Assembly: GCA_965263355.1 (NCBI GenBank)
Contig: CBDHHL010000032.1
Coordinates: 1,888,001-1,952,000 of the forward strand
From: Leptolyngbyaceae cyanobacterium
Lineage (GTDB): Bacteria > Cyanobacteriota > Cyanobacteriia > Phormidesmidales > Phormidesmidaceae
Length of the DNA stretch: 64,000 nucleotides
Reading direction: 5' to 3'
Shown here piece by piece: positions 42,083 through 63,550 of this stretch (positions are counted from its first letter, which is position 1; every line of letters starts with the position of its first letter). Position numbers and translations under genes: made by a program. The notes beneath the pieces are model-generated. The model was not told the DNA's origin. It worked only from the letters and a program-made list of their open reading frames with translations, and did no database searches.

Positions 42083-42154
42083 GCCAACGTGGCTCAGTGG
42101 TAGAGCACTCGATTCGTAATCGAGCGGTCACGGGTTCAAATCCCGTCGTTGGCT
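42083..42154 (+). tRNA. tRNA-Thr(CGT)
   Basis: Acceptor stem GCCAACG/CGTTGGC; D-arm GCTCAGTGGTAGAGC; anticodon arm CTCGA-TTCGTAA-TCGAG; T-loop GGTTCAAATCC. Confidence 0.97.
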
Positions 42155-42231
42155 TTAAGCCCAAAAGCATTGAAAATAAATAGATTAATCGATTTAAACA
42201 GGGATAAAATCTGCTTAAACATACATCATTT

Positions 42232-42294
42232 GGGTGTAAAAATTCCCTGATGTTGGACATTTTTAGACTAGTTTGGGTGTAAATCGGGTGTAAA
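42232..42294 (+). repeat. Three GGGTGTAAA direct repeats (candidate integrase arm-type sites)
   Basis: Copies at 42232, 42275 and 42286, between the tRNA 3' end and the integrase start. Confidence 0.6.
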
Positions 42295-42319
42295 TTCTTG
42301 TAAGAACTAATGTATTGCT

Positions 42320-43474
42320 ATGCCCCCACCAAAAGCACCGAAAACGCCGTCAGGCAAGGCACCTAAGGGGACCGTTCAGGTAGTTGCATCCCATGGACGT
42401 CTGCAGCTTCGATTTCGTCATCAGGGCAAACGTCGATATCTCTCCATTGGTCTCCCCGACTCTCCTACTAACCGAATTGTTGCCCAACAAACTGCCGGTC
42501 AAATTCAACTCGATATTATCTCTGGCAACTTTGACAACACGCTAGCAAAGTATAAACCTACAGCCAATCAACCCCAAGAGAAAGTTACCGTAGAAATCCC
42601 CTCAGTGTCGGAGCTGTGGGATAGTTTTTGTGAAATCAAACGCCAAACTGTTGCACCGGGTACATGGCGTAATGGATATTGTGTGAACACCCGCCATTTA
42701 ACCCGGTGTCCCTACAAAAAATTAGAGGATGCACAAAAAATTTACGACTGGGCAGTTACAACCTTAAAACCAGATCCAGCCAGACGGCTTATTCAGGCTT
42801 TGTCATCCTGTTGTAAATGGGCAAAGCGGGCCAATTTGATTGAGACTAATCCCTTTGAAGGGTTATCTGCAGAAATCAAAATCCCCAAAAAGTCTGCTGA
42901 AAACAACGATATTGATCCCTTCACACAAGCAGAACGGCAGACAATTATTGAGGCGTTCACCCAAAGCAAATATTATGCCCACTACACGTCGCTAGTAAAA
43001 TTCCTGTTTTTTACGGGCTGCCGTCCATCCGAAGCGGCTGGTCTGCAGTGGAAACATATTTCACCGCAGGAAATTGTTTTTGATCAGGCAGTAGTTGATT
43101 CTGTCTATGGGAGAGTCTTGAAAGAGGGGTTGAAAACCCAGTCCAAACGAAAGTTTCCAATTAACCGACAACTTCATAAGTTGTTGTCAGAACTCCGGAC
43201 CCCAGATGTCAAAGTAGACGATTTTGTTTTTCCCAGTCCAAATGGAAACTATTTGAACTGTCAGAATTTTCGCAGTCGTGGATGGACACCTATTTTGGCA
43301 CAGTTAGGTATCCGTTATCGTAAGCCTTATCAGGCTCGGCATACTTTTATTACCCATTGCTTGCAAGAAGGCATTAGCGTACAACAGGTAGCTAAATGGG
43401 TAGGTAACTCACCTGAGATCATCATGAAGCACTACGCTGGTATCTTAGAGCAACTCCAGGTGCCTGAAATTTAG
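42320..43474 (+). mobile_element. Tyrosine recombinase/integrase with N-terminal arm-binding domain
   Basis: GRLQLRF...RRYLSIG arm domain; TGCRPSE, LKT, YQARHTF, VGNSPEIIMKHY; starts about 165 bp after the tRNA. Confidence 0.92.
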
Positions 43475-49360: not shown

Positions 49361-49924
49361 CTATTCTTTTATGTGTTCAGAATAAGCTGCTGCATCAAGC
49401 AGTGTATCTAGTTCACTTGGATCGCTCATCTCAATAACGACGAACCATCCCTCACCATAGGGATCTTGGTTGACGGTTTCAGGGTAATCCTCTAACGTAG
49501 CATAGTTAACGCTTACAACAGTGCCTGAAACCGGCGCATAAAGATCACTTGCAGCTTTGACAGATTCGACGACACCCATCTGATCGCCACCTTCAAGGGT
49601 CGCACCTTCCTCAGGCAGTTCAACATAAACTATATCGCTCAACGAAGCTTGAGCATGATCCGTAAAGCCTACAACGACCCGATTCCCATCTACTCTGACC
49701 CATTCATGAGAGCTGAGATAAAGCAATTCACTGGGGACTTGAGAGGCCAGCAGATCCGTGGACTGGCTAAGATTGGGATCAGTTTTGATAGAAGACGCTT
49801 TTGAATTAGATTCAGCTACAGAGTTCTGTTGTGAAGTGGTGACTGCTAAGGCAGAATCAGTCGAAGCAGTAACAGCAACAGTACCACCTAATACAACAGT
49901 TATAACTCGTAAGACTTTCTGCAT
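49361..49924 (-). CDS. gcvH: Glycine cleavage H-protein homologue with N-terminal signal-like extension
   Basis: HEWV, GFTDHAQ, ESVKAASD (lipoyl Lys), VNQDPYGEGW; preceded by about 60 extra residues. Start at 49924, 49942 or 49954. Confidence 0.88.
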   Translation of the reverse strand: MQKVLRVITVVLGGTVAVTASTDSALAVTTSQQNSVAESNSKASSIKTDPNLSQSTDLLASQVPSELLYLSSHEWVRVDGNRVVVGFTDHAQASLSDIVYVELPEEGATLEGGDQMGVVESVKAASDLYAPVSGTVVSVNYATLEDYPETVNQDPYGEGWFVVIEMSDPSELDTLLDAAAYSEHIKE

Positions 49925-50457
49925 CAGTTCTGGTTGACCCATAATTGAATTCACTTATAACAACAGTAATTATCATAGCCATAAAAAGAGATAAATAACG
50001 TCGTAAAAGTCTGATCGTTTGAGATAACTTTGAAATATCTAGAGCCTGCTCACTAAAGACAAAGGTTAATGCCATAAACGTCTATGCTGAGGTGATTCGA
50101 TAGATGGTGTTTAAGGCTATATCTGAGATTGTTGTCACAGCGACATACTGAACTACGGTATTTGTATTTTTAAACGGACATTGTTCACATGCTCTAAATC
50201 TCTGTTGTCTAAAACCACCTCAGCAATGAGCAGACTTTTCATACTTTTTAGACATTCTGTTAGCGCTATATTGTGAACGGCACTGTGGATGGGAAAGAAT
50301 GTGTGCGTCTTTGAGTATGAACGTGCATTCTTCTCGTTCAGATCCTCAAATGATTCTAAATTGAGTGCTTTAAAGACCACGGTATTCAACCAGTTGGTGC
50401 GATCTCATCTCGATTGTTCCAGCATTTGAAAACAATAGAAAATGGGAGATTAAGCAT

Positions 50458-51612
50458 ATGTATGAAGACCCAACAGCGATCGTCATTGATAATGGTTCAG
50501 GCTTTATAAAAGCTGGCTTTGCTGGCAAAGATGCTCCTAGCACCATTTTTCCAAGCATCGTTGCTCGACCACAAGACGCGGGAGCAATGCAGCCAAACGA
50601 TGCCTATGTTGGCCATGAAGCCGAGAGTAAGCGAGGGACTTTAGCCATCAATAATCCCATTGAGCATGGCATTGTGACCAATTGGGATGATATGGAGAGG
50701 ATCTGGTACCACACGTTTTATAACGAGCTCAAAATCACTCCCGAAGAACACCCTGTATTGCTCACTGCGTCTCCCTTAACTCCGAAGGAACATCGTGAGC
50801 AGATGGTTCGGATAATGTTCGAATCCTTTAATGTTCCAGCACTTTACATAACAACTGCCCCCGTGCTTGCGCTCTACGCAGCTGGACGCACAACCGGAAT
50901 CGTTGTTGACATCGGCGATGGTGTGACCCACGTAGTCCCCGTTTATGAAGGAGATGTGTTGCCCCATGGCATTATACGCTTAGATTTAGCAGGGAGAAGC
51001 TTGACGGACTATATGGTCAAACTCCTGAATGAAAGGGGGTATAACTTGAGCACCGCTGCAGAGCGAACCATTGTGCAAGACGTCAAAGAGACATTAGCGT
51101 ATACGGCCCTTGATTTTGAACAGGAAATGCAAACAGCAGCATCGAGCAGTAGCCTTGAGAAGAGCTACGAAGTGCCAGATGGTCGAGGGGTTATCACGAT
51201 TGGCAATGAGCGTTTCCGTTGCCCTGAGGCATTGTTTCAACCGGCCTTGAGTGGCATGGAGTCAGCTGGAATCCATGAAGCAGTGTGCAACTCCATTGTG
51301 AAATTGAAAGCTGATAGGTACACTGATGAGAACGGGATTTATAAGGATATGCGGAATAGCTTCTACTCCAACATCCTTATGACGGGTGGTTCAACCATGT
51401 TTCCAGGGATAGCAGATCGTATGCAAAAAGAAGTAGGGGCATTGGCTCCCCCCACTGTGAAAATTAAGATTATTGCCCCTCCAGAGCGTCGATATGGAGG
51501 TTGGAAAGGAGGCTCTATCACGGTTAGTCAGAGTACATTTCGACAAATGTGGATCTCTAAACAAGAGTACGACGAAAGTGGTCCCGGCATCGTCCATCGG
51601 CGAGAGTTTTAG
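50458..51612 (+). CDS. Eukaryote-type actin homologue
   Basis: Colinear with conventional actin: [112 protein letters not shown]. It is not MreB, FtsA or ParM. Confidence 0.97.
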
Positions 51613-51670
51613 CATGTTACTAGCCGTGAGCATGTAGATGGGATAGTTATTTCAATCATTGTAGTTGGCA

Positions 51671-51706
51671 ATCGCCCTGAGCAAAGACTTGGGGCGATCG
51701 TTTTTT
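51671..51706 (+). terminator. Rho-independent terminator of the actin gene
   Basis: atcgccctgag-caaaga-cttggggcgat followed by cgtttttt. Confidence 0.7.
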
Positions 51707-51927
51707 ATTATTCAGCTCTGCAACCAGTCCAACACTTCTTCTATTGCCAGTTGAACAAATGACTAATGGTGAATATAGAAGGCAATCGATAAAAAATGGG
51801 CGGCCTCAATGAATGAAACCGCCACAATCTGAGCTTTTAGTAAAGATTTGTTGGTGATAAGGGCTGTTATCCCGTATTCTTCCTAAAGTGGCTTTAGGAA
51901 AGTTCGATTACCATTGTCCGGAGCAAA

Positions 51928-53256
51928 TCACCTCCCTTCACTAACTTGCTCATACTCAGAGATAAGACTTTGGAGATTACGCTCTGCTTCCCTAAACTGC
52001 TGCTCATTCATCCCTTCATAAGTATAAAAATCAAAAAACTCTTTACGACGAAATAGCGTATCGAACTCTTCGAGCACTCTCAGCAATAAGATCTGGATTG
52101 CAGTTGTGTTGTTTGCAAATGTTGCAGAATACTCCAGGGCAAACGTTGGAATCTCACACACTAAATTATGAACACTATCAGAAATCGATGAGCGGATATA
52201 ATCAGCATTTTCCACCTGAATCTTGGACATCTGTTGGTCCACGTCTCTGCTCGACATGTCTCCTCTAAAACAAGTATAGGCTTTGAGTAACTGCCCTTGG
52301 CGTGGATCAGCAGCAGCCAGCATATTGTCTACGTTGAACATTTGTGGAACCAGTTCTGGTAGAGTTCTCGCCTCATACTGACGACTCCCAATAGAGAGGA
52401 TCGGGGCAAGCCCTGGCGTAATAAACTTCAAATCAGGTGATGGTGCTAGATTAGCCACCATATCTTTTAAGGTCCAGCGGTCTGAATTAGCAAGTGGTAG
52501 CCTCAATGGAACAGTCAAACCACTTATCGTTTGTGCCACAGTATAGTTGATGTCGTTCCAGCTTGGATTTTGTATTCCAAGTGAATGACGACAAGTATTG
52601 TAAAGGTGCTCATTGTCGAAACAAAAGGTTAAATCAGCATTTTTTATGAGATGTTCGATCCCAAGTGTCGCGTTGTAAGCACTGGTGATACTTTTGTCAC
52701 TAGCCGAACTACAGCCTAACTGAGTGGACGAGGGGAAGACAGAAAATGTGACAATTGGTTTTTCTGGATATTCTTCCTTTAATTTAGAAAGTAACAGCGC
52801 CCCCATTCCAGAGCCGGTCCCTCCTCCCAAAGTATGGAGAAGCATAAACCCTTGAAAATTTCGATAGTCAATCGTATCAACTTCCCGGCGAACCCCTTCC
52901 AAGACCTGTTCAATATATTCAGTCCCCTGTGTATAAAAGCCTTTGGCCCAGTTTTTAGTTGTTCCTTCTGCTTTCGTGAAAAAGAAGTTGTCGGGTCGAA
53001 AAATTTCTGCAAAAGAACCGCTACCGTACACCTCAGTAGTCAGCCTATGGTCTAAATCGGCAAGTATTGCTCTGGGAATATATGCACCTCCTGGTACTTT
53101 ATGACAAAAAATCTCAACGTGTTCTCGTTGCCGTTCATCATGTCCACGCCATCTGCGTGTGTGGTCAATCTCATGTTCACGAAAAAACATTTCCCAAAAT
53201 TTACACCCAATTCGGTTGCCACCTTGACCAAGGTGAATGGTAATGATCTCGTTCAT
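51928..53256 (-). CDS. Beta-tubulin-like protein
   Basis: MNEIITIHLGQGGNRIG, YIPRAILADL, IFRPDNF, NWAKGFY, HTLGGGTGSGMG, YNATL, AADPRQG, FRRK...YTYEGM...AERNLQSLISEYEQ. Likely start 53256 (ORF track starts at 53286). Confidence 0.95.
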   Translation of the reverse strand: MNEIITIHLGQGGNRIGCKFWEMFFREHEIDHTRRWRGHDERQREHVEIFCHKVPGGAYIPRAILADLDHRLTTEVYGSGSFAEIFRPDNFFFTKAEGTTKNWAKGFYTQGTEYIEQVLEGVRREVDTIDYRNFQGFMLLHTLGGGTGSGMGALLLSKLKEEYPEKPIVTFSVFPSSTQLGCSSASDKSITSAYNATLGIEHLIKNADLTFCFDNEHLYNTCRHSLGIQNPSWNDINYTVAQTISGLTVPLRLPLANSDRWTLKDMVANLAPSPDLKFITPGLAPILSIGSRQYEARTLPELVPQMFNVDNMLAAADPRQGQLLKAYTCFRGDMSSRDVDQQMSKIQVENADYIRSSISDSVHNLVCEIPTFALEYSATFANNTTAIQILLLRVLEEFDTLFRRKEFFDFYTYEGMNEQQFREAERNLQSLISEYEQVSEGR

Positions 53257-53292
53257 TGTAAAGCTCTTATTTTCTGTTGTCTGCAATATCCA

Positions 53293-53329
53293 ATAGCAGA
53301 AACTCAGCTCAACGGTGAGTTTCTGCTAT
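53293..53329. promoter_or_regulatory. 14-bp perfect inverted repeat upstream of the tubulin gene
   Basis: atagcagaaactca-gctcaacgg-tgagtttctgctat. Confidence 0.6.
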
Positions 53330-53587
53330 CCAAAAACTTAACCCTGAATTCCTAATGAAGTTGCTCAACTTTTGGCCGTGACGTCCGTTTCAACACTCTG
53401 TTGTACCCAAAGTTGTCTTCTCCTCGAACCAAAACAGCACTCCAGTTATCGAGGAATATCATAGGCTAGCTTATCTGCATCTATTCTATTTCCAATAGAC
53501 CCAATGATCTGAGTCTTAGATTGTTTTTTTGATTTTGTCAGCTGTTGCATGATGGGAGTCCTTTCTTCTTATAAGCAGAAGAGATTT

Positions 53588-54319
53588 TTACACCTGTTTT
53601 TTGAGGATAGAGTTCCAGTTTTTTGAGACGTTATAGCCGTACATATCCTGATAGTGTGTATCGATGCTATAGGCATCAGGATGATTCATTAGCCAGCCCC
53701 TCAACTCAGCCATTCTTCGACTTCCCCGCTGGATTAATTCCTGATCGTCCCAATCATCCCAGACCTCCCACAAAAACTGATTGGTGTCTTCGATAATGAG
53801 ATAATCACCAGCCTGTAACCCATGGTGATGAAAATGTTCAAGAATCCCCAATAGATTATCGTGAACATCCTCTATCACTACCCAGGGGTGGGGCAAGGTG
53901 GCCAACAACGTGGCAGGTAAAACCGTCTCAATGTCTCGACAGTCTCCTTCTAAGAAACGGATCCTGGAATCTGTTTTAGCCGTTTTATGGAGCTGGGACA
54001 AATCATGATCAATGCAAATAACCTGACCAGGAATGTAAAACTGCTCCAGCTGATCTGCTAGCCAAAGAGCACTACCGCCTTTGAGTGCCCCCAGCTCAAT
54101 AATGGTTTTGGGTCGCAGCTCATGCAACAGCATAGGATACGCTGCAATTTGCATGGGATCTTTCTCTAAGAGCACCCCTTTCCATTGTTGTAAATAGCCA
54201 TTTTCAGTCAACGGTCTCCAGGCTGACTTAGGCATATCACAACGATCGTCCCGTTCAGAAATTTTGACAAATCGCTTGTTCTCAACAGTCTCTTGCGTAG
54301 ATGAGTTTGATTTCACCAT
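53588..54319 (-). CDS. CmcI (cephalosporin hydroxylase) family methyltransferase-like protein
   Basis: WKGVLLEKDP, LRPKTIIELG...GGSALW, GDYLIIEDT. Confidence 0.88.
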   Translation of the reverse strand: MVKSNSSTQETVENKRFVKISERDDRCDMPKSAWRPLTENGYLQQWKGVLLEKDPMQIAAYPMLLHELRPKTIIELGALKGGSALWLADQLEQFYIPGQVICIDHDLSQLHKTAKTDSRIRFLEGDCRDIETVLPATLLATLPHPWVVIEDVHDNLLGILEHFHHHGLQAGDYLIIEDTNQFLWEVWDDWDDQELIQRGSRRMAELRGWLMNHPDAYSIDTHYQDMYGYNVSKNWNSILKKQV

Positions 54320-54374
54320 GGTATGTTGGCTGTGAAATGGACTTGGATAATGACATCAAGAGGTAAGCGTCCCT

Positions 54375-54450
54375 TGAGCGGAGTCGAAGAAGCGCATCGG
54401 ATAGGCTGTAGCTAACTCCGTTGGGAACGCTTTACGAACGACTCCGCTCA
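54375..54450. repeat. REP-like inverted repeat pair
   Basis: tgagcggagtcg ... cgactccgctca. Confidence 0.6.
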
Positions 54451-54475
54451 GCTAGCGGGTACAATCAGAGAGATT

Positions 54476-54832
54476 TTACTTATAGGTTGCAGCAAACACT
54501 TTGCCTTCCTCGTCTCCACTCCCGTCTTTATTCCATTTCCAGTTAAAGGCATAAATCCAGTAAACGTAGTTAACTGTTTCGCCAGGATTACCAAACTTAT
54601 GGGGAGTATGGGCAGGTGTTTTGAATAACTCACCAACAGCAGGACGATAAACAGTGTCTCGTAACGAGACTTGCACCTCCCCCTCGATTAGAATAATGTA
54701 CTCATCTGTTTTATGACCTGGGTTAGACCAGAACTCTCCCGGTTCAGTTTTGTACAGTTCACACTTAAACCCCTTGGGTTCCCATTCCTGACGGAGTTTT
54801 TCTAGGCCCAGTTCAACGTCTTGTGTATTCAT
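54476..54832 (-). CDS. Cupin-domain protein
   Basis: GHKTDEYIILIEGE...GELFKTPAHTPH. Confidence 0.85.
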   Translation of the reverse strand: MNTQDVELGLEKLRQEWEPKGFKCELYKTEPGEFWSNPGHKTDEYIILIEGEVQVSLRDTVYRPAVGELFKTPAHTPHKFGNPGETVNYVYWIYAFNWKWNKDGSGDEEGKVFAATYK

Positions 54833-54857
54833 GGTTATTTCCTAAGAGTTGACAACA

Positions 54858-55587
54858 TTAACTTCTTTTGAGGATAGAGTTCCAATTCTTTGAAGCATTA
54901 TAGCCAAACATATCTTGGTAATAGCGATCAATCAGATACTCATTGGGATAGTTTATCAGCCAGTTTTTGAGTACATCTGAGTTTGCTTAGCATCCGCTTG
55001 ATGAAGTCTTTATCGTCCCAATCTGACCAAGCTTGCCATAAATCTTGGTTGGTATCTTCAATAATGACGTAATCACCACTACGCAAACCATTGTGATGAA
55101 AGTAATCTAGGAGCCCGTCTACATTAACATGTACATCTTCTACGATTAACCAAGGATGCTCATAGTTAGCCAGTAACTCTGGCGGTAAAATCTCTTCAAT
55201 CTTGTTACAGTCTCCTTCTAAGAAATGAATGCCGGAGTTGTTTCTAGCCCTTTCATCTAGTAAAGACAGATCAATGTCAACCGAGTAAACCTTCCCATCG
55301 ATATCGAACGCCTTTAGCTGGTCGGCTAACCAGACGGCACTCCCCCCCGTCTCTGCCCCCAGCTCAATAATTGTTCTGGGTTGAAGCTCATAGATTAACA
55401 TGGGATAAAGTGCAATCTCGAAAGGGCTTTTATCCATGGATATACCTTTCCAGGTTTGCAGAAGATAATTTTGAGTCAGGGGCCTCCAAATACTGTTAGG
55501 CAGGGTACATCTATCTTGTCGATTGGTGATGCTTACAAACCTCTCTGGCGTAGAAGATGCTGGATTATCAAAAGACTGCATATCCAT
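54858..55587 (-). pseudogene. Second CmcI-family gene, frameshifted
   Basis: One extra base near 54978. The shifted frame reads DVLKNWLINYPNEYLIDRYYQDMFGYNASKNWNSILKRS*, matching the C-terminus of the paralogue. Confidence 0.85.
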
Positions 55588-55592
55588 GGTAA

Positions 55593-56237
55593 TTAGTCCT
55601 TTTTAAAGGCAAGCAGATGCATTAACGTGGTGTCATCATACATGGGGAATGTTTGCTCGCTGACTAGGGTCCACGATAGGTGGTCTAAGGCTGACTGCAT
55701 TTGCTGGCGATAGTCCTGGCGTATGGTTAATAGAAACAGGCCCTGGTCTTTTAAGAGAGTAAAGAGATTGTCTAATACCTTCGGCCCGGCATGGGCGTAG
55801 GCAAACACTCCAGCCGCAATAATCACATCAAAGCTGATTGAATTGCCGAAGATGGGCTCTTCTAGATTTCCTTGATGCAGATTTTGATAAACCTGCTTTT
55901 CTTTGGCAAGTGCTAACATTTTTTCTGATAAATCGACTGCCGTAAGATTGGTATAGCCTTGATTGGAAAGCGCTTCACCCACTAACCCTGTACCAGCACC
56001 GGCATCTAAGATTGCGGCATTTGGATTATCATTAAGTAGTTGGGCTAGTGTGCGAGCTATGTTAACGGGCATAAAAGACCAATCATTTTCTAAATCTACG
56101 TCGTAGGTATTTGCCCAGCTGTCGTATTTATTTTTTAATTCTTCAATACTTTGACTGCCACAGATCTCAGTTAACCAGGGCCTTTTTTCTAAGAAATCTT
56201 TGGCTTGTTCTTCGGGGCCCTGTTTTTTAGTCTCCAT
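55593..56237 (-). CDS. Class I SAM-dependent methyltransferase
   Basis: YDSWANTYD, ILDAGAGTG, VDLSEKML, FDVIIAAGVF. Confidence 0.92.
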   Translation of the reverse strand: METKKQGPEEQAKDFLEKRPWLTEICGSQSIEELKNKYDSWANTYDVDLENDWSFMPVNIARTLAQLLNDNPNAAILDAGAGTGLVGEALSNQGYTNLTAVDLSEKMLALAKEKQVYQNLHQGNLEEPIFGNSISFDVIIAAGVFAYAHAGPKVLDNLFTLLKDQGLFLLTIRQDYRQQMQSALDHLSWTLVSEQTFPMYDDTTLMHLLAFKKD

Positions 56238-56340
56238 GGCATTACACCTTTACTACGTCTTTAAGAACCTTGTTTCTGATGTTTGACCGAATAATTTTCT
56301 CTTCGTAGATATGACAGTTGTGAAATATTATTATATGCCG

Positions 56341-57357
56341 TTAGCAAACTCCGAAAGTAACCCCTAAATCTTTGAGCCATCTGCGATAGGCAATCGACGC
56401 TTTATCAGCTTCAACGTGTTTTTCTGGAGGCCAGGATGAATCATCTCCTCTGTGAGGGAGCAATGGCAAACGAGATGGCCGTTGGGACTCTAGCATACTA
56501 ATATCTTCTCGCATATACTCTTCTGTAGACTCGTAAAACTGTGAGTCAGGCACGTCATGCCCATAGTTTAAAGCGAACGCTAGCCACACCAGACAGCTAT
56601 CTTCCTCGACAGGTGTGGCACTCAAAACCAAAGACACTCGGTCAGAACTATTCTCCATTTCCCGAATGGAGCGCATCATCAAAGGACTATCAATCGTGAT
56701 TGTCCGCATTATGGCCTTACTCAAGGTTCTAACCCCTGTATAGGTGGCATCCACCTGAAAGAACTGGAGGTTGCTAATGGTTACACCGTTTTCATCCCTT
56801 TTTACATCGTATTTGTCGGTCAGGGGATAGCGAGAATCTCCAATAGTGTTGTCATGTAAAAATGCAACATGGGATAGATCGAAATTATTCTCAATTGCCC
56901 GAAATCCACTAACGTTAAATCGATAGGGACCACATATAACCTGACGATAGTCTGGATTATCCCACTCTGGAAATGGAGGTACATCCTGTTCAGGATTTCC
57001 CAAGCTAATCCAAATAAACCCTCTACTTTCCTTACATTGATAGGTTTTTACACAGGTGTTTGGCAGCGGCTGTGTAGGCTGAGATGGAATATGGACGCAT
57101 TTACCCGTGTTTTCATACTGCCAGCCATGATATCTACACGCTAGGTGATCACCAACTATTTTTCCTTGGGACAGCGCCACCCCCCTATGGGGGCACCAAT
57201 CTTGCCAAGCGAGTATAGGAGATTGTGGAGAACTACCACGCCATAGCACAATATCTTCACCCAGAAGTCTCACTGGTTTGACATCACCTGGCTGAATATC
57301 GTCCGTTTTGCCAATGATGTACCAGTCGTTTACTAAAATTGGATCTATTTCAGCCAT
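56341..57357 (-). CDS. Rieske non-heme iron oxygenase, SxtT/SxtH-like
   Basis: CPHRG...CRYHGW Rieske motif; ENNFDLSHVAFLH mononuclear Fe motif; C-terminal AYRRWLKDLGVTFGVC. Confidence 0.9.
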   Translation of the reverse strand: MAEIDPILVNDWYIIGKTDDIQPGDVKPVRLLGEDIVLWRGSSPQSPILAWQDWCPHRGVALSQGKIVGDHLACRYHGWQYENTGKCVHIPSQPTQPLPNTCVKTYQCKESRGFIWISLGNPEQDVPPFPEWDNPDYRQVICGPYRFNVSGFRAIENNFDLSHVAFLHDNTIGDSRYPLTDKYDVKRDENGVTISNLQFFQVDATYTGVRTLSKAIMRTITIDSPLMMRSIREMENSSDRVSLVLSATPVEEDSCLVWLAFALNYGHDVPDSQFYESTEEYMREDISMLESQRPSRLPLLPHRGDDSSWPPEKHVEADKASIAYRRWLKDLGVTFGVC

Positions 57358-57453
57358 GCTTCACTGTTAATTGTTTCTGAAGTACTCATGCGAGGCCTAG
57401 TCACACCATATTCATGTTCGTAGCTGTATATCCAATACCCACGAATAGCTACC

Positions 57454-58461
57454 TTACGAACACATATTCCCAACCACCTCCACAACCGTATCAGGAGGTA
57501 AACGATTTAGGTGCCAGGCTGTAACTTCTTCCCCTGGTATTAAAATTGGACTACCGGGTGGAATTTTCTTAATGCAGCTGCCGCTGATTCTGCCAAGGGC
57601 CTGATCAAGAGACAATTTCTCTTTTGGTGAAAAGAATGCCTGGTTTGGCAAAACTTTGATTTGAGGACAGCGGCTAAAGTAATTAACAGGGAACGGTGTT
57701 TGGACCGCTTTACCCTTAAGAATAGGAACTGCTGTTGCCAGACATTCTCGAATAAATTGAAAATCTTCTTGACTGTGGTTAAACGAAAACAGCAATAACA
57801 GCCCTTCTTCGTTGGCAAATTCGCCATCTAGACCCAGGTCAAACAAAATATCGGCCAGTTCAGTGCCCAACACGCGATCGCTTTTCAAAAAGATCTTCAG
57901 CGGATCGTTGACATCAGGATCATAGGTCAATAGTTGACCATACGTATCTAACTGAGTGCGAAGACGGTCGCATTCACCAATGGCTTGAGCAAACATTGCC
58001 TTCCCTGCTTCTGAGTACCTTCGCTTGATGGCATCTTCAATACTGAGGATCAACAGGTTACTGCGGGTCGTTGCTTCAAATAAAGGAAAATTTCCTCGAT
58101 ACAGATCTTGATAAATGTTTTTCTCTTTGGCAAGTGCTAACATTTTTTCGGATAGATCCACCGCCGTAAGGTTCTTATATCCTTGTTTGGATAGCGCCTC
58201 ACCCACTAGCCCTGTACCAGCACCTGCATCTAAGATTGCGGCATTTGGCTTATTCTTCAACAGTTGGGCTAAAGTGCGCGCTATGGTGACGGGCATAAAG
58301 GACCAATCTTTTTCTAAGTCTGCATCGTAGGTACTAGCCCAGCTATCGTATTTGTCTTTTAATTCCTCAGTACTTTGGCTGTCACAGATCTCATTTAACC
58401 ATGGTCTTTTTTCTAAGAAATCTGTGGCTTGCTCTCTGGTGCTCTGACCTTTAGTCTCCAT
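57454..58461 (-). pseudogene. In-frame chimera: methyltransferase N-half fused to decarboxylase C-half
   Basis: 58090-58461 parallels 55866-56237. About 57490-58088 is near-identical to 58851-59449. The PLP Lys motif SLHK is missing. Confidence 0.8.
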
Positions 58462-58476
58462 AGAATTACCGCTCCA

Positions 58477-58812
58477 CTAATCTAGGTCTAGGGGGCTGCC
58501 AACATCACCTTTATCCCATCCCAATCCCATAAGGAAATAGTAACGACAAAATGTTTTAACTTTAAAGGTATGGAAAATTTTTGCAGGAATAATAAACTCC
58601 TCTCCAATACTGGGATAGTAGGTTTTGTCTTCAAAAAATACTTCTGCTTCTCCCTCTAGGAAAATCAATACCTCATCCGCCTCATGACCTTCACTTTGCC
58701 ATGCCTCTCCTGGTATACCTGTGAGCAGGTCAGCCTTAAAACCTTTTTTGATCCACCGATTTTTTGATTCCTCTATTCCAATATTTGTTTGTGGATTATT
58801 CATGTTTTTCAT
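58477..58812 (-). CDS. Cupin-domain protein (paralogue of 54476-54832)
   Basis: PGEAWQSEGHEADEVLIFLEGE...GEEFIIPAKIFH. Confidence 0.8.
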   Translation of the reverse strand: MKNMNNPQTNIGIEESKNRWIKKGFKADLLTGIPGEAWQSEGHEADEVLIFLEGEAEVFFEDKTYYPSIGEEFIIPAKIFHTFKVKTFCRYYFLMGLGWDKGDVGSPLDLD

Positions 58813-58814
58813 GC

Positions 58815-60146
58815 TTAAATACACTCCAATCTGATAACTTCAACGGTCGTCTCAGGAGATAAACGGTTTAGATGCCAGGCTGTAACTTCTTCCCCTGGTA
58901 TTAAAATTGGACTACCGGGTGGAATTTTCTTAATGCAGCTGCCGCTGATTCTGCCAAGGGCCTGATCAAGAGGTAATTTCTCTTTTGGTGAAAAGAATGC
59001 TTGGTTTGGCAAAACTTTTATTTGAGGACAGCGGCTAAAGTAATTAACAGGGAACGGTGTTTGGACCGCTTTACCCTTAAGAATAGGAACTGCTGTTGCC
59101 AGACATTCTCGAATAAATTGAAAATCTTCTTGACTGTGGTTAAACGAAAACAGCAATAACAGCCCTTCTTCGTTGGCAAATTCGCCATCCAGACCCAGGT
59201 CAAACAAAATATCGGCTAGCTCAGTGCCCAACACGCGATCGCTTTTCAAAAAGATCTTTAGCGGATCGTTAACGTCAGGATCATAGGTCAATACCTGGCC
59301 ATACTGGTCTAGCTGATCGCGAAGACGGTTGCATTCACCAATGGCTTGAGCAAACAGCGTTTTCCCTTCTGCTGAATAGCATCGCTTAATGGCATCTTCA
59401 ATACTGAGGATCAACAGGTTACTACGGGTCGTTGCTTCAAATAAAGGAATAACGCCCATCACCTGCTCGACTGTAAATCGAGACCCCGTCGGTAAATGCA
59501 ACAATGCGGTTTGCACCAAACTGCCGGTGTATTTGTGCAAACTGTGGGTGACAATGTCAGCATGGGTTGCGATCGCAGATGGCCACGGCCCATCTAAAAA
59601 TGGAAAATGGCTGCCGTGGGCTTCATCTACCACGAAGGCAATGTCGTGCTGACGACAATAATCAGATAGATAGGCCAGATCGACGGTAATGCCTTCATAA
59701 CTGGGATGGGTTAGCAGCAGCGCTGACACACCGCTTATTTCCAGCGCTGTAATGATCTCCTCCGTCGTTGGCATCAACGTTTTGGATGGAATAAAGTAGG
59801 GCTCTAATCCAGCCAGGATGATGCCATTGACAGTGGAAATGTGGCTATTGAGCGCGATCGCAACCCGCCTATACTGAGTACCCAACAACGCACAGGCCGT
59901 CAGCACCCCTTGACTTCCCCCACCCGTCAGCCAAAACGTATGGTTAGTGCCATACAGCTGAGAGAAATGTTTCTCTACATGCTCAGTTCGAGTACGCGTC
60001 AAAAACGGTACATCATACTCATACATCTCTTGACTGAGATAAGCACCTGCATGCACCCGACCCTGGTGTGCAGGGGTATAAAGCTTGGCCTGCACATCAG
60101 AGTTATGGCCAGCAATCACATCATACGTAGAGGCAGACTGGTTCAT
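58815..60146 (-). CDS. PLP-dependent Orn/Lys/Arg decarboxylase family protein
   Basis: YTPAHQG, LTHPSYEG, VDEAHGSH, HSLHK, PPGSPILIPGE. Confidence 0.9.
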   Translation of the reverse strand: MNQSASTYDVIAGHNSDVQAKLYTPAHQGRVHAGAYLSQEMYEYDVPFLTRTRTEHVEKHFSQLYGTNHTFWLTGGGSQGVLTACALLGTQYRRVAIALNSHISTVNGIILAGLEPYFIPSKTLMPTTEEIITALEISGVSALLLTHPSYEGITVDLAYLSDYCRQHDIAFVVDEAHGSHFPFLDGPWPSAIATHADIVTHSLHKYTGSLVQTALLHLPTGSRFTVEQVMGVIPLFEATTRSNLLILSIEDAIKRCYSAEGKTLFAQAIGECNRLRDQLDQYGQVLTYDPDVNDPLKIFLKSDRVLGTELADILFDLGLDGEFANEEGLLLLFSFNHSQEDFQFIRECLATAVPILKGKAVQTPFPVNYFSRCPQIKVLPNQAFFSPKEKLPLDQALGRISGSCIKKIPPGSPILIPGEEVTAWHLNRLSPETTVEVIRLECI

Positions 60147-60149
60147 GGG

Positions 60150-61511
60150 TTATAGATATACAGGTTGAATTTGAGGCATGGGACGAGCGGTACTCTCTGG
60201 GGCGATGCCATTACGCAAGGCCAACAGTAACCCTGACGCTTCCATGTAGCTATTCACCCGATAGATGGGTCTACCCTTAGTTTCAATCTGCAGAGCCTCG
60301 GGCGTAATGTCGTACATGGTCGTATTATCTTTCACCAAGATAACGGGCACCCCTTGATCCAAAGAGGCCAAGAATGGGATATTCCCCACCGTTGTTTCCG
60401 GCATTACCACCGCAGAAACATTTTCCACCGACAGTCGGGTCTCCCCTGGTGCAACTGGAGTATTAAAGCTTACCGGACGAGGAGAATTAATTAAACCATT
60501 CAGGGGAGAACACACATAGGCACTGGAAATCAGTTCGGCTCCATCCCTGGGGTCCACCAGCTTACCAAATCCGGTGTGTTCCCATTCCAATAATAGGGGC
60601 GCATGGGCGGCAGTTAACCCATAGAAATTAGTCGTCATGTGGGTCATGATCGCCTCTGCCCCACCCCAGGGATTCGCGATCGTTTCTCCTCGATAATAGG
60701 CCTGACGAACCGCATCATCCACCAGCAGCGTCGTCATCAAAGCAACGGCTCCGGCTGAGGACTGGTCCACCACATCCAACGCCTTCATTAGCTCATCCAT
60801 GCCTTGAAATTCTCCAGAGGCATTACCAAACTGGGAATAGGTGCAAGTAGTTTCAATCGGACCAGCCGTAACAACGACAGGGTCAATGGTGATCCCCCCC
60901 ACCGCACGCAACCCATTTAGGGCATTGAGCACATTGTTGAGAAACCGCTCATCTTTTGGCTTTTCAATAATGGCCGCAATGTGATCACGCTTTTCAGGGA
61001 TGACGCCAATATTTCCCAGCATAAGCTGGCAAATCAAATTTCCCTCTAGATACAACACATTGTCTTGAGCAAAATACAGATCTGAGGCCGTTACCGCGTT
61101 GGGGTTTGTAATCAGATAGTCACAGGCAGAGGCCAAAAGATTCGTACTGGGGGTGGCATCACCAGCAAAGCCGCCAATTTCGGCCCTCACCCCGGTGGGA
61201 ATAATACTGACAGCCACAAACGGTTGATTCGACGCCTTTTCACGAACATTCAGGTTCAACAGAGAAGGCCACACCGGCTGTTTATCAGTGTTGATAAAAC
61301 TGCATTCAAACAACAATGAATCTGCCTTGACAGCCGTTAACACTAATCGAATAGGCGTACCCGGTAAAGAAAGAGACGCGATTTCCTGAGATATGTGTTG
61401 CCATGTGCGCTGCTCAGGCGGACATTGAATTTCAAGTTTTGTGGTAAAAACTTGAGCTTTACTTCCTGTAAGAGTAGGGGCAATTCCCTGATTAAAGACC
61501 TGTGAAACCAT
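60150..61511 (-). CDS. DUF3326-domain protein with N-terminal extension
   Basis: IIPTGVRAEIGGFAGDATP, LITNPNAV, PWGGAEAI, AAHAP, VDPRDGAE. Confidence 0.8.
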   Translation of the reverse strand: MVSQVFNQGIAPTLTGSKAQVFTTKLEIQCPPEQRTWQHISQEIASLSLPGTPIRLVLTAVKADSLLFECSFINTDKQPVWPSLLNLNVREKASNQPFVAVSIIPTGVRAEIGGFAGDATPSTNLLASACDYLITNPNAVTASDLYFAQDNVLYLEGNLICQLMLGNIGVIPEKRDHIAAIIEKPKDERFLNNVLNALNGLRAVGGITIDPVVVTAGPIETTCTYSQFGNASGEFQGMDELMKALDVVDQSSAGAVALMTTLLVDDAVRQAYYRGETIANPWGGAEAIMTHMTTNFYGLTAAHAPLLLEWEHTGFGKLVDPRDGAELISSAYVCSPLNGLINSPRPVSFNTPVAPGETRLSVENVSAVVMPETTVGNIPFLASLDQGVPVILVKDNTTMYDITPEALQIETKGRPIYRVNSYMEASGLLLALRNGIAPESTARPMPQIQPVYL

Positions 61512-62002
61512 TCACATAAACTCCGTATAAGACACTATCTGCGGAATACAATCCGAGCCTGAACTAATCCTTGCTATGCGGCACCGTACGTCAATCAAGA
61601 ATGCACTCAAATGCCGAACATTATTGGTCCTGAAATCGTTAAAGTTGAAAAGAGATAAAACCGTATTTTGAGTAACAACTCACAGAGTGACTAAGAAAGC
61701 TTCGCCACAGTTTTTAAATGCATAATAACTGAATGATTTCTCACGTAATCTGTGTAATGCTCTGCGAATCGACATAGCTCATATAGTACACTAATTATTG
61801 AAGTAGACCACTCTGAAAAGTCAGATAAAATCTTTATATTTTGCGGGACTCAGTACTTCCAAAAAAGTCTTTTTTGTCAGAAAAGACGTAAAAGTTTTTT
61901 TTAACTGCTAAAGATAAAAAACCGGCCAACAAGACAAAGATTTTTGTAGTGCAGTAATTGCTCCTATCTATTAATGAGACAGTACGTGAGCCAGTCATTT
62001 AA

Positions 62003-63550
62003 ATGCTTAAACAGTTAATGTTTAACCCATACCGCTATACCCAAGACTTAGATCAACCTTTTTCCTTTAATCACCTGTACCGTCACCCAGGGGATCTCAG
62101 TCGCCACGACCCAGGGGGACAGCGTCAGCGTATTGCCATTATTGGTGGCGGCATTGCCGGGCTGGTAAGCGCCTACGAACTGAGTCAGCTCAAGCATCAC
62201 GTCACATTGCTAGAGGCCGATCCCCGTTTGGGCGGACGGATAAAGACCCATTACTTTAATGACGGCACCTACGCAGAATTGGGGGCTATGCGCATTCCCT
62301 CCAGCCATCGATGCGTGATGCATTACATTGAGAAATTTGCGCTAGAATGTCATGATTTCGTTAGCTACAATCCCCAAGCGTTTTATCATCTGCGGGGTCA
62401 GAAAAGTAGGATGGATGCCTACGATACACTTTTCTCCCGCTATCAGGTGCCGCCTGAAGAACGCCAAGATCCCGCCATCATTTATGACCAGTTCTTAAAG
62501 GAATTAATCGAGTCTTTTTCTGAGACTGAAAAATGGGAACTGTTTTCGCCTGAGTTTACGAGTCCTCGCCTCAGATACTACGACGGCCTATCGTTAACTC
62601 AGTTTTTTCGCGATCGCATCTCCCCCGACATGTTCGAATTCGTCGGTCATGCCACCGGAATGATTCATTACGAGCGAGTATCATTACTCAACGGCTTAAT
62701 TGACTTTTTTGCCTGGTATAGAGCCAAGCAGTACAAATTAGCCGGGGGCCTAGAAACCCTGGTGAATGCCTTTGTAAAAAGGCTGCCTGGCAATATAGTC
62801 ACCCAGGCCCAGGTAAGCACCATCGAAATGACGAATACTGGTGTCAGGCTTCACTGGAATGGCCTTCGGGGGAAACAAACGACGGAGTTTGATGCCGTTA
62901 TCTGCACCGTACCCGCTACGGCTCTAGCAAACATTGAGTTTCATCCGCCGCTGCCTCAAAAACAGCAGTATGCCATTGATAATCTCGGCTATTGCAGTGC
63001 AGCCAAAACCCTATTTCACTGTACAGCTCGACCGTGGGAGTTTGTCGATGGCATTTACGGCGGTGCTAGTTTTACAGACCTAAATATCGAGAAATGCTGG
63101 TACCCGCATGATAATGCCCGCCTGGCGGAGTCATCATCGGATGATCCCCGTTGGGTGGCGCATACCCCTGATAGGTCACACCAACCGGCAGCATTCACCG
63201 CTGCCTACCGATGGGAGCAAAATGCCCGAGATTTTCGCGATCTTAACGAGGGCGATCGCACTGAGCGGACACTAGATGACATCAGACAGCTCCATCCCCA
63301 GATTGATCCCCATGTGGATCAGGTGGTTCACTATATTTGGGACGAAGACCACCAGCCAGGGTCCGGTGCCTATGCGTTTTTTGCCCCCGGAGAGCGGGAA
63401 CAGTTTCAGGGGTGGCTGGGGTTACCCTATCCGCAAGAACGCCCCCGAGTCTTTTTTGCAGGAGAACATTTGGCGATTAACCATGCTTCAGTACAAGGGG
63501 CGGTACAAACTGCGATCGCAGCCATCATCAACTATCTCGAAACTCACTAG
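62003..63550 (+). CDS. Flavin monoamine / L-amino-acid oxidase family protein
   Basis: IAIIGGGIAGL, EADPRLGGRIKT, ELGAMRIP, FFAGEH...VQGA. Confidence 0.92.
   Translation: MLKQLMFNPYRYTQDLDQPFSFNHLYRHPGDLSRHDPGGQRQRIAIIGGGIAGLVSAYELSQLKHHVTLLEADPRLGGRIKTHYFNDGTYAELGAMRIPSSHRCVMHYIEKFALECHDFVSYNPQAFYHLRGQKSRMDAYDTLFSRYQVPPEERQDPAIIYDQFLKELIESFSETEKWELFSPEFTSPRLRYYDGLSLTQFFRDRISPDMFEFVGHATGMIHYERVSLLNGLIDFFAWYRAKQYKLAGGLETLVNAFVKRLPGNIVTQAQVSTIEMTNTGVRLHWNGLRGKQTTEFDAVICTVPATALANIEFHPPLPQKQQYAIDNLGYCSAAKTLFHCTARPWEFVDGIYGGASFTDLNIEKCWYPHDNARLAESSSDDPRWVAHTPDRSHQPAAFTAAYRWEQNARDFRDLNEGDRTERTLDDIRQLHPQIDPHVDQVVHYIWDEDHQPGSGAYAFFAPGEREQFQGWLGLPYPQERPRVFFAGEHLAINHASVQGAVQTAIAAIINYLETH

Follow-up and report, generated by a model that had tools for sequence, protein, structure and literature searches.

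A diverged eukaryote-derived actin beside a β-tubulin gene in a cyanobacterial chromosome, with candidate features of a slow, self-restrained relative of ActM

The window analysed here, a 64,000-nucleotide stretch from a Leptolyngbyaceae cyanobacterium, carries an intronless actin gene that is followed by a convergent gene for a divergent β-tubulin (Table 1). The actin matches the Pfam Actin family with an E value of 5e-122, and its AlphaFold model (pLDDT 91) has a TM-score of 0.93 to actin. All 60 best PDB sequence matches listed are actins, with no Arp among them (Arps stand outside the trees described below), and the MreB family profile scored 22 bits, below its cut-off of 27. The protein is about 70% identical to eukaryotic actin, with 92 of 371 positions outside the eukaryotic residue set and three in-frame indels, and keeps the P1 and P2 phosphate loops, H73, H161, R177 and F375. 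It is an actin, with the actin fold, the phosphate loops and both histidines. A search 5' of the gene found no sigma-70-like promoter, and the gene matches the codon usage of its host poorly, with a fit of 0.003 where most reference genes reach 0.04-0.08. The separate terminators of the two genes argue against a single actin-tubulin transcript.

The surrounding genes are of cyanobacterial type, several of them named by eye: chemotaxis genes, glycogen enzymes, phosphoketolase, Uma2, AAA-WD40, lplA and gcvH. One gene close by has a 90% cluster mate carrying the label Cyanobacteria, and the actin protein is recorded on a 3.94-Mb contig. A short-read contig from three runs of one study, possibly that of the source sample, is identical to the window over 49629-51830 and links gcvH to the complete actin gene. 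These contigs rule out contamination or a chimera for the actin gene, which sits in the cyanobacterial chromosome. A tRNA-Thr(CGT) followed by an Arm-DNA-binding tyrosine integrase at 42083-43474, 8 kb upstream of actin, may mark an island edge; lplA and gcvH stand between them and the actin gene, and no attachment-like repeat was found among the 20 largest repeat families. Carriage by phage or plasmid was rejected, with no match in the phage and plasmid collections.

Behind the tubulin gene, at 53588-63550, lies a small-molecule tailoring cluster with two CmcI-like genes, two cupins, methyltransferases, an Orn/Lys/Arg decarboxylase, a DUF3326 protein, an amine oxidase and a Rieske oxygenase whose best PDB matches are SxtT and SxtDIOX (E 4e-86). 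A local duplication has given rise to a chimeric ORF at 57454-58461, in which a methyltransferase N-terminus, resembling 55866-56165 at 85%, is fused to a decarboxylase C-terminus that resembles 58837-59136 at 96%.

Table 1. Features of the actin-tubulin locus and of two thymosin-bearing loci of relatives
Feature	Position	Strand	Basis or remark
Shine-Dalgarno-like GGGAG	50444..50448	+	9 nt 5' of the ATG, read from the sequence
Eukaryote-derived actin, ActM lineage, 384 aa	50458..51612	+	Pfam, PDB search, AlphaFold, tree
Rewritten D-loop, 3 residues short	50572..50598	+	alignments; pLDDT <50 at residues 42-44
Pro-rich loop and phosphate back door: E107A, A108S, N111T	50767..50781	+	alignment; A108S common to the subclade
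Q137A and A138P	50857..50862	+	alignment; inherited from the cyanobacterial subclade
Y169D at the W-loop tip	50953..50955	+	alignment; filament partner I64 also altered (I64T)
D286K, V287A and 11-residue insertion	51307..51345	+	subdomain-3 barbed face; absent from all other aligned actins
Target-binding cleft, now polar: I341K, L346T, L349Q	51505..51531	+	alignment
C-terminus REF (K373R, C374E, F375 kept)	51601..51609	+	alignment
Terminator-like hairpin 3' of actin	51671..51698	+	position where several relatives have a β-thymosin gene
Terminator-like hairpin behind the tubulin gene	51799..51823	-	sequence
Divergent β-tubulin, 442 aa, convergent with actin	51928..53256	-	sequence, PDB search, tree
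β-thymosin genes	L039:2687-2818; L008:9193-9324		PF01290, directly behind actin

Residues are numbered as in conventional actin, from phmmer and MAFFT alignments. The original prediction, read from the sequence by eye, had described Gln137 as replaced by alanine, LLTEAP as changed to LLTASP, the D-loop as rewritten and about three residues shorter, about 11 residues as inserted near 286-289, the C-terminal KCF as REF, and the phosphate loops, His73 and His161 as kept, and all of this agrees with the alignments. The codon at 50857-50859 is GCC, and Q137 is not retained in the multiple alignment. The loop change is E107A/A108S, the C-terminal one K373R and C374E, and the D-loop is three residues short, with a gap of ambiguous position (45-47 by phmmer, which leaves M44 in register; 43-45 by MAFFT). 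The insertion amounts to a net 11 codons at 51313-51345, the earlier span of 51304-51348 taking in its flanks, and is predicted by AlphaFold to form a β-hairpin (block pLDDT 78-79). Beyond that description, the protein carries A138P, N111T, Y169D, D286K/V287A, I341K, L346T, L349Q and one extra residue after 246, and the gene has bacterial surroundings and an adjacent tubulin. Both partners of the R39-D286 pair and of the I64-Y169 pair are altered together, and 6/16 positions are changed in the cleft for WH2, profilin and gelsolin, in which I341K, L346T and L349Q lie.

Bacterial relatives were collected by a genome scan that gave 32 loci, nine of which have bacterial flanks and were taken as bacterial actins; most of the others are short, likely contaminants and served only as eukaryote-type rows. 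The eukaryote set holds 54 sequences (60 candidates, six dropped for gaps) and includes unnamed proteins taken as eukaryotic. Actin occurs in 4/401 genomes of a phylum sample and in 11/401 of a sample of one cyanobacterial order, with the chosen centre genome counted in each figure and a truncated copy among the 11; further clade members come from gammaproteobacterial (Alteromonadaceae) and Bacteroidota (Aureispira) MAGs. ActM of Microcystis aeruginosa PCC 7806 itself is not in the trees and is represented by L037, in which actin neighbours a profilin and the termini resemble the published actM/pfnM primers.

The protein tree (LG+G4) was built without L039 and without the three bacterial copies that were partial or had diverged most, and has long branches and thin eukaryote sampling. 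It separates 15 bacterial actins (98/92) from 22 eukaryote-set actins and one myxobacterial actin, with the bacterial clade nearest to animal-type and unnamed sequences; a quick version of a mixture-model tree recovers the same bacterial side with an SH-aLRT of 85. The window actin groups with L037, L001, L006, L045, L053 and L054 (95/93). A DNA tree of 22 rows, built without codons 107-108 and 132-138 and the D-loop, keeps it in a subclade with A137/P138 (81/99), together with L002 (98/99), and places L037 in the sister group. By these phylogenies, the window actin shares descent with the ActM lineage inside the eukaryotic actins, and ActM seems to be a single branch within a broader clade of bacterial actins. 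As the placement holds on a tree free of the trait codons, Q137A/A138P, common to the window actin and at least seven other sequences of the cyanobacterial subclade, are inherited, and Q137A as a change private to the window was ruled out. Private to it are the hairpin, D286K/V287A, Y169D, E107A, C374E, N111T, the rewritten D-loop sequence and the polar cleft. Its terminal branch is long (0.36-0.49), and no relative above 75% identity to the actin or the tubulin is among the matches listed by the searches, two of which scored about 8000 candidates and listed 120.

Other unusual actins turned up beside this clade. A Myxococcales actin with P137/P138 (L024:1222-2361) lies outside the main bacterial clade, which suggests a second capture with convergent change. 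Two 265-residue mini-actins (L049:1495-2292 and L050:1495-2292) stand between two-component genes; the D-loop region is missing from them, as is most of subdomain 4 when judged by eye, and genome G073 has one of them plus a second divergent actin, L047. Three eukaryote-looking proteins of 1250-1280 residues (L052, L056, L057) contain an internal actin domain with A/E137 and P138, between regions that look WW-like and vWA-like by eye.

Further comparison revealed that changes at position 137 recur within the bacterial actins. Q137 is kept in 54/54 eukaryote-set actins versus 6/18 bacterial ones, and a tree-based count requires at least five changes between Q and non-Q. Among the 284 positions invariant in eukaryotes, position 137 shows five different replacements, with 9/16 sequences changed; only one of these positions is more varied and three are equal to it. 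A138 is changed in 11/16 bacterial sequences, and D-loop deletions occur in 9/18 bacterial actins. P138 is not exclusive to bacteria, since it also occurs in divergent eukaryote-looking actins (4/7 loci of one search).

Several relatives carry a partner gene directly behind actin. In 7/19 loci (L003, L004, L008, L039, L044, L053, L054), two of the 19 being short-flanked, a β-thymosin ORF (PF01290, E 2e-21) encoding 44-48 residues lies within about 80 nt 3' of actin. The bearers include Roseofilum-type cyanobacteria and a gammaproteobacterial MAG, and thymosin was found in 3/371 genomes, each time beside actin. β-Thymosin sequesters actin monomers. IS elements and a Dam-type methylase pair are also found near actin in the relatives. 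The thymosin profile found nothing in the 64-kb window (best E 4.1), and a profilin search there was likewise negative; a profilin search of five actin-bearing genomes, run without a positive control, also found none. Since thymosin is present on either side of the clade and, with L053 and L054, within the window's own subclade, the simpler reading is that the window lineage lost it, although the presence and absence of thymosin take five changes on the tree, a count that by itself fits gain and loss alike. L001, L006 and others have no thymosin, yet their filament interfaces are intact, which argues that partner loss does not require self-blocking.

The neighbouring tubulin is 48% identical to a canonical β-tubulin, and its best PDB matches are eukaryotic β-tubulins. 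It keeps GGGTGSG but has a rewritten T7 loop, an acidic residue at the K254 position and no acidic tail. Together with seven others (P0133, P0136, P0138, P0141, P0149, P0154, P0166) it lies on one side of a branch from 20 canonical β-tubulins (100/99), and D or E occupies the K254 position in 7/8 members of this divergent group. In α-tubulin, E254 is catalytic. The acidic 254 and rewritten T7 could permit self-activation or reflect a loss of heterodimer constraints. No second tubulin (alpha or A partner) was found in the window. Only one of the seven relatives is labelled cyanobacterial (genome G003); this genome also has an alpha-like tubulin and an actin with thymosin, with actin and tubulin on different contigs. 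On a 3.1-kb contig of G003 (L033:45-2555), a degenerate alpha-like tubulin gene lies behind a β-tubulin gene in the same orientation.

Actin-tubulin adjacency was seen only in the window. Conserved synteny was rejected, with tubulin in 1/10 actin-bearing genomes and 0/401 of the order sample; in the phylum sample of 401 genomes, tubulin was found only in the chosen centre genome. That two genes this rare are neighbours suggests co-transfer or a linkage favoured by selection. A low-depth contig (depth 4.5, 30 letters on the short side) joins 51845 to 53599 and skips the tubulin gene, leaving the tubulin terminator behind cmcI, and hints faintly at a tubulin-less strain. The closest listed tubulin (P0133, 54%) and a 90%-cluster LplA (P0409) are each on a 4104-bp Logan contig; if the two contigs are one, a relative has a fast-diverging tubulin at the same locus.

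The dN and dS values of the window actin are 0.214 and 1.42 against L001 and 0.229 and 1.43 against L053, with 0.074 and 0.53 between L001 and L053; dN/dS of other pairs ranges over 0.08-0.41. From the pairwise values, dN/dS on the window branch is about 0.15-0.16, with dS near saturation. When neutral evolution was simulated to similar divergence, 1-3% of 300 runs kept an open frame. The real substitutions, with a mean BLOSUM62 of +0.13 to +0.19 versus -0.47 under neutrality, are more conservative than those of every simulated run. These comparisons indicate that the gene is under purifying selection and maintained as a folded protein.

Published mutants of other actins bear on what the changes would do. 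In the accessible text of 10.1101/309534 and PMC10062479, Q137A cardiac actin polymerises into normal-looking filaments and releases phosphate about 4-fold slower. N111S opens the phosphate back door at least 15-fold in the part of PMC10643162 available, the D286A/V287A/D288A "DVD" actin is described as non-polymerisable in a passage of PMC9010300, and 10.1101/309534 names Y169, R39-D286 and the D-loop as key long-pitch contacts there, with Y169 and the D-loop as the main one. The slow hydrolysis put forward in the original prediction is fair in the light of the Q137A data, and the altered polymerisation is plausible given the changes at D286/V287 and Y169; a block through Q137A alone does not hold, as this mutant still polymerises. 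In the window actin, 24/40 filament-contact residues are kept, including the longitudinal salt bridges K61-E167, R62-D288 and D244-R290 and the lateral residues K113, E195, H173, G268 and E270. The 16/40 changes at the interface (p 0.018) fall to 6/27 versus 76/330 elsewhere once the D-loop is removed (p 0.62), the insertion being uncounted, so beyond the D-loop the interface shows no excess of changes.

Altogether, we consider there to be an even chance that the protein is a slow-ATPase, partner-less, self-restrained actin, held as monomers or short static polymers inside its own cell; every biochemical step is inferred by analogy with mutants of other actins. It would be a eukaryote-derived actin of the Microcystis ActM lineage, domesticated by the cyanobacterium and working in its own cell. 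It likely binds ATP, given the kept nucleotide loops, and would do so as Mg-ATP. Cleavage would be slow through the inherited Q137A/A138P, and N111T, which may act on the back door as N111S does, would release phosphate at once; such a combination would leave no ADP-Pi timer and no treadmilling. The ancestor of the subclade was presumably paired with a monomer-sequestering β-thymosin that the window lineage lost, and restraint would now lie in the actin's own sequence, with D286K/V287A, the hairpin and Y169D weakening barbed-end docking. The outcome would be monomers, short oligomers or short static ribbons, and the protein would be a low-cost structural or binding element rather than a dynamic cytoskeleton. 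The RBS-like motif and terminator, the purifying selection, the kept nucleotide loops, the clade position and the partner-free window favour this reading, as do the published data on the DVD site and the long-pitch contacts and the D-loop deletions and shortened forms among bacterial actins; against it stand the 24/40 contacts kept, the lack of interface enrichment beyond the D-loop, the thymosin-less relatives with intact interfaces, the missing sigma-70-like promoter and the polymerisation of both Q137A actin and ActM in the published accounts. A reading as toxin resistance or a toxin sponge was discarded, with changes at the presumed latrunculin and macrolide sites near the background rate by a hand count.

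A fairly unlikely alternative is that the protein forms a robust ActM-like polymer, which would assemble efficiently into stable ribbons or into a shell at the periphery and give mechanical or osmotic support; the hairpin would then point outward, and rearranged contacts (e.g. D40-K286) would compensate. The clade and the D-loop length are those of the ActM-like L037, most salt bridges and lateral contacts are kept, the partners of R39-D286 and I64-Y169 have changed together, Q137A actin polymerises in the accounts above, and ActM forms ribbons and shells in the accessible text of PMC3254629. However, the insertion sits exactly at the DVD site, Y169D puts a charge on the hydrophobic W-loop tip, L037 retains Y169 and D286 without an insertion, and the window holds no profilin.

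The original prediction had also offered a capper or decoy for host actin, which finds no support here: no host or export route is evident, and the target cleft is now polar. In its fuller form, which we think very unlikely, a protein directed at a host or grazer would join eukaryotic barbed ends by its partly intact pointed face and expose a blocked barbed face, perhaps with the unpartnered β-tubulin. Pointed-face K61, R62, T202, E205, D244 and possibly M44 are indeed kept while the barbed face is altered, and two eukaryote-type cytoskeletal genes stand side by side. But R39, H40 and I64 are changed, no signal peptide was visible by eye, no secretion or injection gene is among the window ORFs, and the relatives are spread over many unrelated cyanobacteria as well as other bacteria; the polar cleft for WH2, profilin and gelsolin would, moreover, make a poor decoy.

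It is just as doubtful that the gene is a relic, formerly selected and now drifting after partner loss with no present function. The long terminal branch, the low codon fit, the truncated or IS-flanked copies in relatives (L048, L044) and the patchy distribution over the two genome samples are consistent with decay. Yet dS is long too, and the branch dN/dS therefore comes to about 0.16; the three indels all preserve the frame, the substitutions are conservative, and the gene has its RBS and terminator. Such tests would not reveal a function lost very recently. Highly improbable is a stress- or phage-triggered switch, in which an ancestral toxin-antitoxin-like pair of actin and thymosin would free a stable polymer on loss of the peptide and the window copy would be an attenuated orphan: the two-gene layout with a 44-48 residue partner, the IS elements and Dam-type methylase pair beside relatives and a phage role for ActM raised in part of PMC3254629 fit it, but there is no match in phage or plasmid collections, no partner in the window, and no mention of toxicity in the accessible passages of PMC3254629 on ActM expressed in E. 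coli.

The closest known system is ActM/PfnM of Microcystis aeruginosa PCC 7806 (PMC3254629, PMC2442094), which is likewise a eukaryote-derived actin in a cyanobacterial genome. In the portions available, ActM polymerises into short ribbons and the profilin PfnM bundles rather than sequesters (PMC3254629), and the pair is said to be restricted to a single strain or reservoir (PMC3254629, PMC2442094). The window actin and L037 are 53% identical and both have lost Q137, whereas the window has no profilin, A137/P138 in place of G137/S138, the 11-residue hairpin at 287, Y169D, D286K, C374E and an adjoining β-tubulin. Databases already label Microcoleus and Roseofilum proteins as actin, and the database bacterial actins (Microcoleus, Oscillatoria, Roseofilum-type, Alteromonadaceae and Aureispira MAGs) form one clade with the window actin, the Microcoleus-type ones sharing Q137A/A138P/A108S. 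The window actin is about 67-70% identical to most of them and 55% to the Aureispira copy. Most of them are 82-89% identical to eukaryotic actin and several have a downstream β-thymosin, whereas the window actin is far more diverged and has no partner nearby. Unlike conventional eukaryotic actin, it has changed Gln137, the conserved D-loop, Y169 and D286/V287 and gained an insertion, and the engineered Q137A, N111S and DVD mutants all have a natural counterpart in it.

BtubA/B of Prosthecobacter and the Beggiatoa tubulins (PMC3349469, PMC4202323) are also eukaryote-derived tubulins in bacteria, whereas the window has a single tubulin gene, clearly β-derived, and offers no alpha or A partner for it; the accessible parts of both papers name no cyanobacterial tubulin. 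BARP of Haliangium and the Uab actin (PMC6906331) are other actin-like genes in bacteria, neither of them in our trees; the available text of PMC6906331 places the Uab actin nearer to archaeal actins, and that of PMC8850707 and PMC9950537 gives no further bacterial case. A literature search, in which subscription journals and supplementary trees were thinly covered, found no report of the wider clade, of actin paired with thymosin in a cassette or of adjoining actin and tubulin genes in a cyanobacterium.

A broader scenario may tentatively be drawn, which we consider possible but less than likely. One old capture of an animal-type actin, with a β-thymosin or profilin cassette, would have spread among cyanobacteria and other aquatic bacteria, where selection would keep the protein and repeatedly erode ATP hydrolysis and filament contacts towards a restrained, non-treadmilling actin. 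The window would be a self-blocked, partner-free end state, linked to a parallel β-tubulin group with an alpha-like acidic 254, and the two together may form an undescribed actin-tubulin module.

The bacterial actins form a natural mutagenesis series on why actin is so conserved, which also bears on the roles of hydrolysis and the D-loop once binding proteins are gone. The window actin, small, expressible and uniting counterparts of three classic mutants, offers a natural test of what actin does inside bacteria, and its β-tubulin neighbour a test of whether a lone β-tubulin self-assembles.
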